The notes below the pieces were generated by a model that saw nothing but the letters and a program-made list of their open reading frames with translations, was not told the DNA's origin and made no database searches. A stretch of 64,000 nt of DNA from Octopus vulgaris (lineage: Eukaryota). Shown here one piece after another: positions 26,076 through 64,000 of the stretch (position 1 is its first letter; every line of letters begins with the position of its first letter). Position numbers and translations under genes: made by a program. The DNA lies in the NCBI GenBank assembly GCA_951406725.2, contig OX597826.1:43028001-43092000 (forward strand), written 5' to 3'.

Positions 26076-27719
<1,644 letters not shown>

Positions 27720-46343: not shown

Positions 46344-46686
46344 ATCTTTAGTAGCAGATGGAAGTGTGTTGTTTGGGCCAGTATGAGGCAGTGTGAACAG
46401 AGAAGAACAAAAATATGAAAAGAAGAAAGATTGGATGTAGGAGAGAGAGAGAGAGAATGACATCTGTATCAAAACAGTACAAATTGTTTACATACATAAA
46501 CTATAACAACATTTACCAGTCCTGGACTTCAATGACTAAGTACATAAAGCAGGAACCAGGAACAGTACTAAATGTTATGTGAAACTGGCTACTCCCAGCC
46601 ATACACACACATTGGTGTTGTTAACTTTTAAGGCTGACAAATGCCAATGAATCACAACTAATGAAGATTGTTGCTAATTATCTTTG

Positions 46687-46830
46687 GTCTAGTCTTTAAT
46701 CTACAGTCTTGTCTTCCATCATCAGTCTAGTCTTTGATCCATAGTTTCGTCTTTAATCCTCGGTCTTGTCATTAATCCAGTCTCATCTTTAATCCACAGT
46801 CCTGTCTTTAATCCACAAACTAGTCGTTAA
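46687..46830. repeat. 19-bp minisatellite, about 7.5 units (consensus GTCTAGTCTTTAATCCACA)
   Basis: Units: gtctagtctttaatctaca, gtcttgtcttccatcatca, gtctagtctttgatccata, gtttcgtctttaatcctcg, gtcttgtcattaatcca, gtctcatctttaatccaca, gtcctgtctttaatccaca. Confidence 0.88.
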
Positions 46831-46986
46831 GTTGACTGATACCACAGTATCTTTTCTAAGTGTTGCTTCACAATACAATTACTTACAACCATATTTACTT
46901 AACGCCCAGTAATGTGCCACCCATCATTAAGCCCCAAGGTTTGGCATCATACATGGTTTCCTGAAAAGCTAGCTTTATTTAATTCT

Positions 46987-47083
46987 TCTTACCTTTTATT
47001 CCAGCCAATAATGCTGTAAATTCAGAAGGAACAATGTTGAATCAAACTTACCTAAAAGAAAATAAAAAAAGATGTCATTTAGT
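46987..47083 (-). promoter_or_regulatory. Candidate recursive splice site with 59-nt RS-exon (47051-46993)
   Basis: Minus strand: actaaatgacatctttttttattttcttttAG|GTAAGTttg...aataaAAG|GTAAGAag. Confidence 0.55.
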
Positions 47084-47084
47084 T

Positions 47085-47375
47085 ATATTTTGGTTTTGGA
47101 TTTGGTTTACAAGGTTCTTTATGTGAACTTATATGTTCAAGCATAATTTTTCTTTTATCTCAGGAGGGTCATTATGCTAAGAATAAACACAAGCATTGAT
47201 TCTATTTCACTTCTTTCATTACTGACTGAACAATTAATCAAACAGTTAATTGGTTAATAGTTTACCAATTGACATAAAAATAATAACAAACTAAAATAGA
47301 ACCAGTGTGTGTGTGAATTTTATTATTAGCATAATGACCCTACCAAAATACCACAAAATTAAGCAAAACAGTTTA
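47085..47375. mobile_element. Diverged palindromic MITE-like element
   Basis: Internal inverted arms 'agggtcattatgctaa' / 'ttagcataatgaccct'. Related sequence near 6920-7110 and 36900-37140. Confidence 0.5.
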
Positions 47376-48755
47376 TAAAAAATTAGAATTAACTCTATAT
47401 CATATTTAACAAAAGTATCTCCAAAACAAACATTTTCCTTTTATATTTTGGTGTACTTTGTGAATAACGTCAACAAATTATATTAAGAGAGGCATTTATA
47501 TACTGCAAAAACCCATGTAATTTACGTACTTTTTTCACAAAAACAAAAATAATCAGAGCTTGAGACAAGAAGACACTTTCGACCAATCAGAATTTTGTTT
47601 ACATAATGAGTGATGGGTCACCTTCCTCAGTCAGTTGAGTAAAGTGACATCCAAGCTGATGTTTATTTTGCAACACTTGTGCATATTTATCAGCTTTGTT
47701 TTTGTTGGCAAGAATTATCAACAACTTTTCCTGTGATCGTGATTTGAGAAGACACAGAGAAGTATGCTAAAGATCGGACATAATCTCTTGTGGGCAAAAG
47801 TTTATTATAAACAACACAAACACTTTGTAATTTAATAGCTTTCAATGAGATACCTGTTAAATAGAAATTATTTTTATTTAGTGAAAATTTAATAAAATCT
47901 AATCATAAGCAAGTGAAATTATGCTAAATACAACTAAATTGAAAAACTTTTCCCCTGGCCATATCGGAAATTCTGAAAACTTTGGGGTGCAAATTTTACA
48001 CGAGCAGAAGCTTTTTTTCAACAATTTTTATCCTGAAAATCACCTGCGTAAATTTAATGTTTGCCTTCCATGTCACCATGAGTTGGACAGAGGGAGACAA
48101 ATATCTGATAAGGCCAAGAACAGTGTTGTGCTCCAGTCCACATTGTATAATTTGTCAGTGGTGGATAAGACACATTTGTGATCTGTATAGTGCCTGCCAA
48201 GCTAGTGAGACCCGTTTAACCTGATATCATCATCATCATCATTTAATGTCCACTTTTCTTTGCTTGTATGGGTTGGATGGAATTTGTCGAGGCAAATTTT
48301 CTTCAGCTGGATGCTCTTCCAGTCACTAACGCCCACCTATTTCCAAGCAAAGAAACATGTTTCATAGCCAGAAGTGTTTCCCATGGAAGACTGGAAATGA
48401 ACAATATCACTCATATGGGTTTTTCACATACGGTGTTTTAGTATCATTTACTAATTCACTTTTACATCCATTTTACCATGCGTGGGTTAGAAGATTACAT
48501 ATTATAGAGATTACATATTATAGAGATGTTTAACAGCCTGAAGTCTTTCCTGTTGCTTAAGAGAGCTCTCATCTCACTCTGATGATCTGTTGACCAGGAA
48601 ATGTCAACAAATGACATCAACAGTCAAGCTGCTTAGTGTGGAATGTAAATGCTTACTACACACACACATACACACACAAATATATACTATACAAATATAA
48701 ATATGCAAAAACATATATGCACACAGAAAAGCATATATATGGCATTTACCATATA

Positions 48756-63757: not shown

Positions 63758-64000
63758 TCTCAGAAACTGTGCCAGTCCACCTTCTTTAAAAATGTAACAG
63801 TAAATTAAATTAAATTGATTTTTTGCATAAACAAATGACCAAAAATTTTAGTGGGAGGGAACAAATAATTATATGAACCCCAGTATTGGTCCGATTCTTT
63901 ATTTCTATTGACCCTAGGAGAATTAGAGGCAAAGTTGATCATTGTGTGATTTGAACTCTTTAGCATTCAGATTATTCTGTTAAATGTAATGCTTATTTAT

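Follow-up and report, generated by a model that had tools for sequence, protein, structure and literature searches.

A candidate Drosophila-type ratchet point in a 250-kb Fat4/fat intron of Octopus vulgaris, and a genome-wide class of similar sites

Recursive splicing is established in flies, with hundreds of sites, and fully suppressed sites are rare in mammals. A minus-strand splice motif in the genome of Octopus vulgaris raises the question of whether a giant intron in a mollusc is removed in the same stepwise manner. The motif lies at position 47051 of a 64,000-nt stretch of contig OX597826.1 (positions 43,028,001 to 43,092,000; hereafter the window), where an acceptor AG runs directly into a GTAAGT donor. 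We consider it likely that this is an intronic ratchet point of the Drosophila type, which would have the 250-kb Fat4/fat intron removed in two successive segments, one of 115 kb and the other of 135 kb. The relevant features are as follows (a slash within a donor or acceptor marks the junction; RS, recursive splice).

1 to 64000, minus strand: the whole window, inside one phase-0 intron of the Fat4/fat protocadherin gene (C13:43190022-42939810; 250,213 nt)
47074 to 47085, minus strand: branch-point candidate TAAC/ACTAAA/TGAC, read from the sequence 23-34 nt upstream of the RS donor; candidate branch A
47054 to 47072, minus strand: polypyrimidine tract, 18 of 19 pyrimidines, TT at -6/-5
47052 to 47053, minus strand: acceptor AG of the proposed ratchet point, where contigs of runs X11 and X20 cease to match the genome, as in simulation
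47046 to 47051, minus strand: recursive donor GTAAGT, predicted to be rebuilt as GAG/GTAAGT after splicing to the upstream exon
46993 to 47051, minus strand: putative cryptic RS-exon, 59 nt in the source assembly, with a TGA at codon 10 in the phase-0 host frame
46987 to 46995, minus strand: second (RS-exon) donor AAG/GTAAGA, bridged by X9, X11 and X20 contigs with no joint listed
about 47081/47086 to 47362, no strand assigned: palindromic MITE-like repeat, context outside the splice signal, abutting the branch point upstream

Each element of the motif described in the first-pass annotation, namely the branch-point-like ACTAAA/TGAC (47083-47078 and 47077-47074, respectively), the 18 pyrimidines in 19, the AG/GTAAGT at 47051 and a second donor 59 nt further on, could be re-read in the minus-strand sequence, and the TTTTAG at the acceptor places a TT at -6/-5. 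The accompanying claim that no other site is of this quality was confirmed. There are 15 AG-GTRAG sites in the window, and only that at 47051 has 18 pyrimidines in 20, the next best having 13; across 464 kb on both strands, the sole other YAG/GTRAG with at least 14 of 20 pyrimidines is the normal donor of a cadherin exon. In the 250-kb intron, read in the sense direction, 0.036 sites with at least 16 of 20 pyrimidines and GTAAGT are expected and one is observed (antisense, none), the expectation in the same intron rising to 0.12 at a threshold of at least 14 of 20. Indeed, 47051 is the only acceptor-plus-GTRAG site in this intron on either strand, and relaxed rules (at least 15 of 20 pyrimidines and three of four donor positions) found no further RS site on the sense strand. 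The motif had also been placed outside repeats. This is true of the motif itself, as the 146 bases around it are single-copy in the genome, but not of its immediate surroundings, where the end of the palindromic MITE is no more than a few bases from the branch-point candidate. On a crude U1-match score the RS donor and the second donor are equal, each with 6 of 7 positions, and competition between them is therefore not predicted on that score to favour the RS donor. The RS-exon does contain stops in all three frames, one of them inside the GTAAGT donor itself, as had been emphasised previously. They carry no diagnostic weight, since 46% of random 59-mers built alike have the same property, and in the genome-wide class described below all-frame stops are again at chance level (19 of 45 vs 18.0 expected); we have accordingly discarded this feature as evidence.

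The host gene was sought in 200 kb fetched on either side of the window. The minus strand carries a giant cadherin gene with a 5.3-kb open frame at C13:43.190-43.195 Mb and, 88-175 kb left of the window, numerous exons for cadherin, EGF and laminin-G domains; named matches to its last exon are Fat4 or cadherin-related tumor suppressor, the best match being a bivalve protein at 37%. The window's intron is the one that separates the giant 5' coding exon from its successor, and two earlier predictions, that the window lies in a very long intron of a minus-strand gene and that an upstream exon would be found beyond position 64000, are thereby borne out: the intron that spans the window measures 250,213 nt, and the giant exon ends at C13:43190023. 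The site at 47051 divides the intron into 114,971 and 135,242 nt. The giant exon ends in SKTE before GTGAGT and the next begins with VTIELLDVND after TTTCAG, both in phase 0, such that SKTE joins directly to VTIELLDVND. An HMM search for a missing cadherin exon between them gave nothing credible (best minus-strand match in the intron, E 3.5), and three full-length relatives of 4934 aa, from Logan contigs of a related species, join the equivalent exons directly. Six relatives have the end of the giant exon (C13:43190023-43195341) at an identical residue, with predicted proteins that stop shortly beyond, which implies that the intron position is old. A protein search for a translated RS intermediate of the source species found none, and the truncated relatives end in differing V-S tails that are indistinguishable from intron read-through. 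Several vertebrate hosts of RS-exons are likewise adhesion genes.

Contig assemblies of sequencing runs provide a view of transcripts at the site. The 24 runs listed are all represented by contigs and none is on record as RNA, the RNA or DNA status given here being a guess. Four were aligned: X9 and X11 (guessed RNA, organism A, study P7), X20 (guessed RNA, organism E, study P10) and X17 (guessed DNA, organism E). Runs in which the word share was small (X13-X16, X18 and X19) are left out of the evidence. In two of the three probable-RNA runs, the match of contigs to the genome breaks off exactly at 47053, the acceptor, and on the other side the contigs continue past the second donor. X20 record 18 aligns over 46687-47053 (letters 1-359 of 383) and has 24 loose letters beyond 47053, while X11 record 1 starts exactly at 47053 with 0 loose letters; the two come from different studies and species labels, and each has a depth of about 5 that is flat within the contig. 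The guessed DNA contig, X17 record 10, crosses the site uninterrupted (46687-47552). The contig from the third RNA-type run, X9, stops at 47026 and is uninformative on the acceptor. Contigs of all three RNA-type runs pass over the second donor, where no joint is listed, although contigs drop rare forms. No RNA-type cover was seen in the aligned runs at 47403-47448, upstream of the MITE, an absence to which we give no weight.

PMC12424806 describes Logan contigs as built from 31-mers, and we simulated a k=31 graph in which the giant upstream exon is spliced to 47051. When the intermediate is mixed with normal mRNA, 26 exon letters enter the contig and, with the AG matching the window, 24 remain loose; with unspliced RNA, 47053 is where the contig begins and no letters are loose; with only the pre-mRNA donor, 26 are loose; and simulated DNA runs through the site. 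Both observed patterns (24 and 0 loose letters) are reproduced. Transcripts joined at 47051 had been predicted from the sequence, and the divergence of probable-RNA contigs at 47053 in two of three runs, as the simulated intermediate predicts, supports that expectation. From the number of loose letters, the giant upstream exon is the presumed partner of 47051, assuming that the next exon in organism E begins GTAAC.

The same contigs document variation between alleles and species. From offsets and gap counts, the RS-exon is about 70 nt long in organism E and probably 68 nt in another allele, and the weight formerly placed on a length of 59 nt is not supported. Organism E has an 11-nt insertion between 47014 and 47032 plus three listed substitutions inside the RS-exon, and in X11 the stretch from 46968 to 47032 is 9 nt longer. 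Organism E also carries a changed inner AG at 47014, in DNA and RNA-type contigs alike. The polypyrimidine tract has one listed difference in organism E DNA, at 47058, and the AG and both donors have no listed change in that organism, against a divergence of about 6% and with 13 of the 21 differences of the X20 contig listed. Conservation of the motif in organism E is thus weak evidence for a ratchet point.

Is the Fat4 site one of a kind? An enrichment of pyrimidine-tract AG/GT sites had been suggested as a genome-wide check, and the scan revealed a signature of the fly type. The strict pattern used, Y12-N-YAG-GTAAGT, is one that the Fat4 site itself misses by one purine. It has 154 matches, compared to 43 for the reversed pattern, 35 with GTAACT as the donor and 34-56 expected from local composition, an excess of 3-4.5-fold in a scan that is blind to strand and introns. 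A YAA control gave 236 matches and was unusable because it is dominated by repeats, 22 of the 30 fetched being repeat-family copies. The family that dominates it (L179-L204) contains a pyrimidine run followed by CAAGTAAGT and often occurs as one-strand pairs 0.3-0.8 kb apart.

We examined the first 100 of the 154 listed matches and dropped six members of repeat families to leave 94. A donor with at least 5 of 7 U1 positions lies at +30..+80 in 37 of the 94, vs a mean of 9.3 (maximum 16) in 50 equal windows further away. This interval was chosen after the first 30 loci, and the remaining 67 were therefore treated as held out; they gave 26 of 67 vs 6.6 (p 3e-10). The distances that define the putative RS-exons peak at 40-80 nt. 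For the GTAACT control, 30 of 35 matches were fetched and seven dropped, and the remaining 23 had downstream donors in four cases vs 2.2 at a threshold of at least 5 of 7, and in three vs 0.3 at at least 6 of 7 (p 0.002); these strong control donors probably belong to real exons. A TT at -6/-5 is present in 81 of 94 class sites vs nine of 23 controls, and branch-point-like YTRAY motifs around the 94 sites peak at -40..-31, with 29 vs 8.4 per 10 nt. Neighbouring matches less than 300 kb apart are on the same strand in 12 of 12 pairs, where 1.8 such pairs are expected, and in 14 of 15 at less than 500 kb. The class is not uniform: 51 of the 94 sites have no donor of at least 5 of 7 at +30..+100, and 15 end an open frame of at least 60 codons and might be normal exon donors or simple repeats. 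Taken as a proxy for strand, T>A skew did not separate the sites (0.044) from the controls (0.042).

As far as sequence can tell, these enrichment features are those of fly ratchet points, and the octopus genome probably carries at least 100 ratchet-type sites at the strict pattern alone. One group (G000:C13:4468665-4805401; L135-L139) has five strict plus-strand sites spaced 37-120 kb apart, four of them with a CAG/GT donor 45-55 nt downstream, and this cluster at C13:4.47-4.81 Mb probably represents one giant gene with putative serial ratchet points. Same-strand pairs and trios of strict sites, 118-390 kb apart, occur at C13:57416518-57801923, C9:104955602-105622522, C3:9636738-9754255 and C6:97123276-97256261, and also at C8:15104034-15244988, C8:50884187-51020681 and C5:10730463-11004273. 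The six strict matches set aside (L054, L056, L074, L089, L102 and L126) belong to repeat families whose copies come with a ready-made Yn-YAG/GTAAGT; such families could seed new ratchet points or act as decoys.

How, then, might the Fat4 site work? In the mechanism that we favour, the acceptor and the second donor would define a short cryptic exon, and the giant upstream exon, which ends in GAG, would be joined to 47051 before transcription of the intron is complete. The rebuilt GAG/GTAAGT would then be used instead of AAG/GTAAGA and be spliced to the next coding exon, after which the mRNA would keep no trace of the RS-exon. Any inclusion of this exon would add a premature stop, and the product would probably be removed by NMD. 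The intermediate of the first step would arise equally from inclusion of a poison exon or from use of a cryptic last exon.

A regulated poison cassette exon would be formed by splicing of the upstream exon to 47051 followed by use of the second donor, with the TGA at codon 10 consigning Fat4 mRNA to NMD. The strong acceptor, the strong second donor (6 of 7) and the in-frame stop in the phase-0 frame are what one would expect of such an exon, and the contig junctions fit its formation as well as they fit the first step of recursive splicing. We nevertheless think it unlikely. It has no need of a perfect GTAAGT at +1, for which the chance is about 2.5e-4 per position, and yet a genome-wide class shares that donor; moreover, neither the content nor the length of the exon is kept between alleles and species. 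The bridging of the second donor in all three RNA-type runs is a further, weak argument, given that contigs lose rare forms. A cryptic or alternative last exon, in which splicing to 47051 is followed by cleavage and polyadenylation to yield a truncated and possibly secreted Fat ectodomain, would require contigs to run past the second donor, as they do, and could draw on AATAAA hexamers at 47000-46995 and 46979-46974. This hexamer occurs at 1.2 per kb in the 250-kb intron, however, and the RNA-type contigs run 300-390 nt past both copies, reaching 46667-46687, with further pieces to 46357. This model also leaves the donor at +1 and the same-strand clusters unexplained; we judge it somewhat less probable still.

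It could also be argued that the motif is a product of chance or of functionless splicing noise, and that contigs end at 47053 through accidents of assembly or through polymorphisms. Chance would account for about a quarter to a third of the 154 strict matches, contig depth is low and the RNA status of the runs is guessed. Against this, 0.036 such sites are expected in the intron, and the contigs of two runs, labelled with different studies and species, end at one and the same base with exactly both simulated patterns where DNA runs through; a break caused by the repeat would fall at the MITE end, at least 30 nt further upstream. We regard this explanation as very improbable. Finally, the functional unit might be a 21-nt microexon from an inner acceptor (47015-47014) to the second donor, the inner acceptor being pyrimidine-rich and the length divisible by three. 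In a phase-0 intron, though, these 21 nt end in a stop, and the inner AG is altered in the DNA and RNA-type contigs of organism E. A neural microexon that preserves the frame would have an open host frame and a conserved acceptor, neither of which is found here, and we rejected this candidate as barely credible.

Recursive splicing through a ratchet point thus remains our preferred reading of 47051, and it invites comparison with known systems. Fly RS sites, such as those in Ubx, kuz, Bx and luna, are described in the fly literature as a juxtaposed acceptor and donor with cryptic RS-exons that are short and variable (about 50 nt), little conserved and mostly out of frame (10.1101/006163; PMC8605326), and fly ratchet points have a TT at -6/-5 (10.1101/006163). 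The Fat4 site resembles these Drosophila ratchet points in that its juxtaposed sites lie in a long intron with a strong tract, a TT at -6/-5, a donor downstream and an RS-exon that is short and variable, and the octopus class resembles them in having several sites on the same strand. The spacing differs, at least from that of the 108-kb fly luna intron with its five ratchet sites (10.1101/006163): the two Fat4 segments measure 115 and 135 kb, and the octopus class has same-strand neighbours 37-275 kb apart. Furthermore, fly sites have proven re-splicing, lariats and deep conservation, whereas the octopus Fat4 site is known from sequence and probable-RNA contigs.

For vertebrates, PMC8605326 reports, from Sibley 2015, nine fully suppressed sites and thousands of expressed RS-exons. 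In common with vertebrate RS-exons, the octopus site lies in a very long intron; its host is a cell-adhesion gene, and exon definition followed by re-splicing at a rebuilt donor is what we propose here. A sequence-only survey predicted enrichment of ratchet-point motifs in the large introns of insects and sea urchin and reports none in vertebrate large introns (ratio at most 1.5) (PMC2773006). The octopus genome, with its 3-4.5-fold motif excess, departs from those vertebrate figures and joins the insect and sea urchin predictions as an invertebrate with large introns and motif enrichment; it goes beyond such predictions in that the Fat4 site has support from RNA-type contigs and the class shows an RS-exon distance peak. 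No mollusc appears in that survey to judge from its main text, in which 'mollus' has 0 occurrences (PMC2773006). More generally, we found no report of recursive splicing in molluscs in the literature searched, which consisted of main texts mostly from outside subscription journals; recursive splicing and cephalopods co-occur in PMC8797185 only in its reference list.

The mechanism itself is already known; what is new is the lineage, in that we found no report for molluscs, and the RNA support is indirect. On balance we lean towards a broader interpretation, in which the ratchet points of the octopus, a hundred to several hundred of them and about 100 kb apart, would form a system like that of the fly and cut up giant introns inflated by transposons. 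With the Fat4 site, a mollusc would then have its first recursive splice site supported by RNA, and recursive splicing via cryptic exons would be an answer to giant introns that protostomes, possibly bilaterians, share and that scales with genome size. A mollusc with a large genome and the fly signature allows a test of two questions, namely whether ratchet points are an ancestral trait or came about in parallel during intron growth, and whether the distance between them, about 100 kb here, follows intron size. The list of octopus sites supplies coordinates and a concrete target for RT-PCR. There is also a practical aspect for annotation, as RS intermediates of giant genes, Fat4 among them, may be mistaken for truncated isoforms.

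Some local features deserve mention in their own right. The MITE-like element next to the branch-point candidate belongs to a high-copy family of about 280 bp, with 39 other scored matches at 76-83% identity, and its RNA could fold into a long hairpin just upstream of the branch point. It is also present at the same place in organism E, where a DNA contig spans it without a large gap. On the plus strand, A exceeds T over C13 about 42.89-43.17 Mb (window -140000 to +140000), which covers most of the Fat4 span and fades near the 5' exon, as expected of a strand bias linked to transcription. Lastly, a (TA)n array of 1.6 kb occupies positions 26076-27699 of the window.
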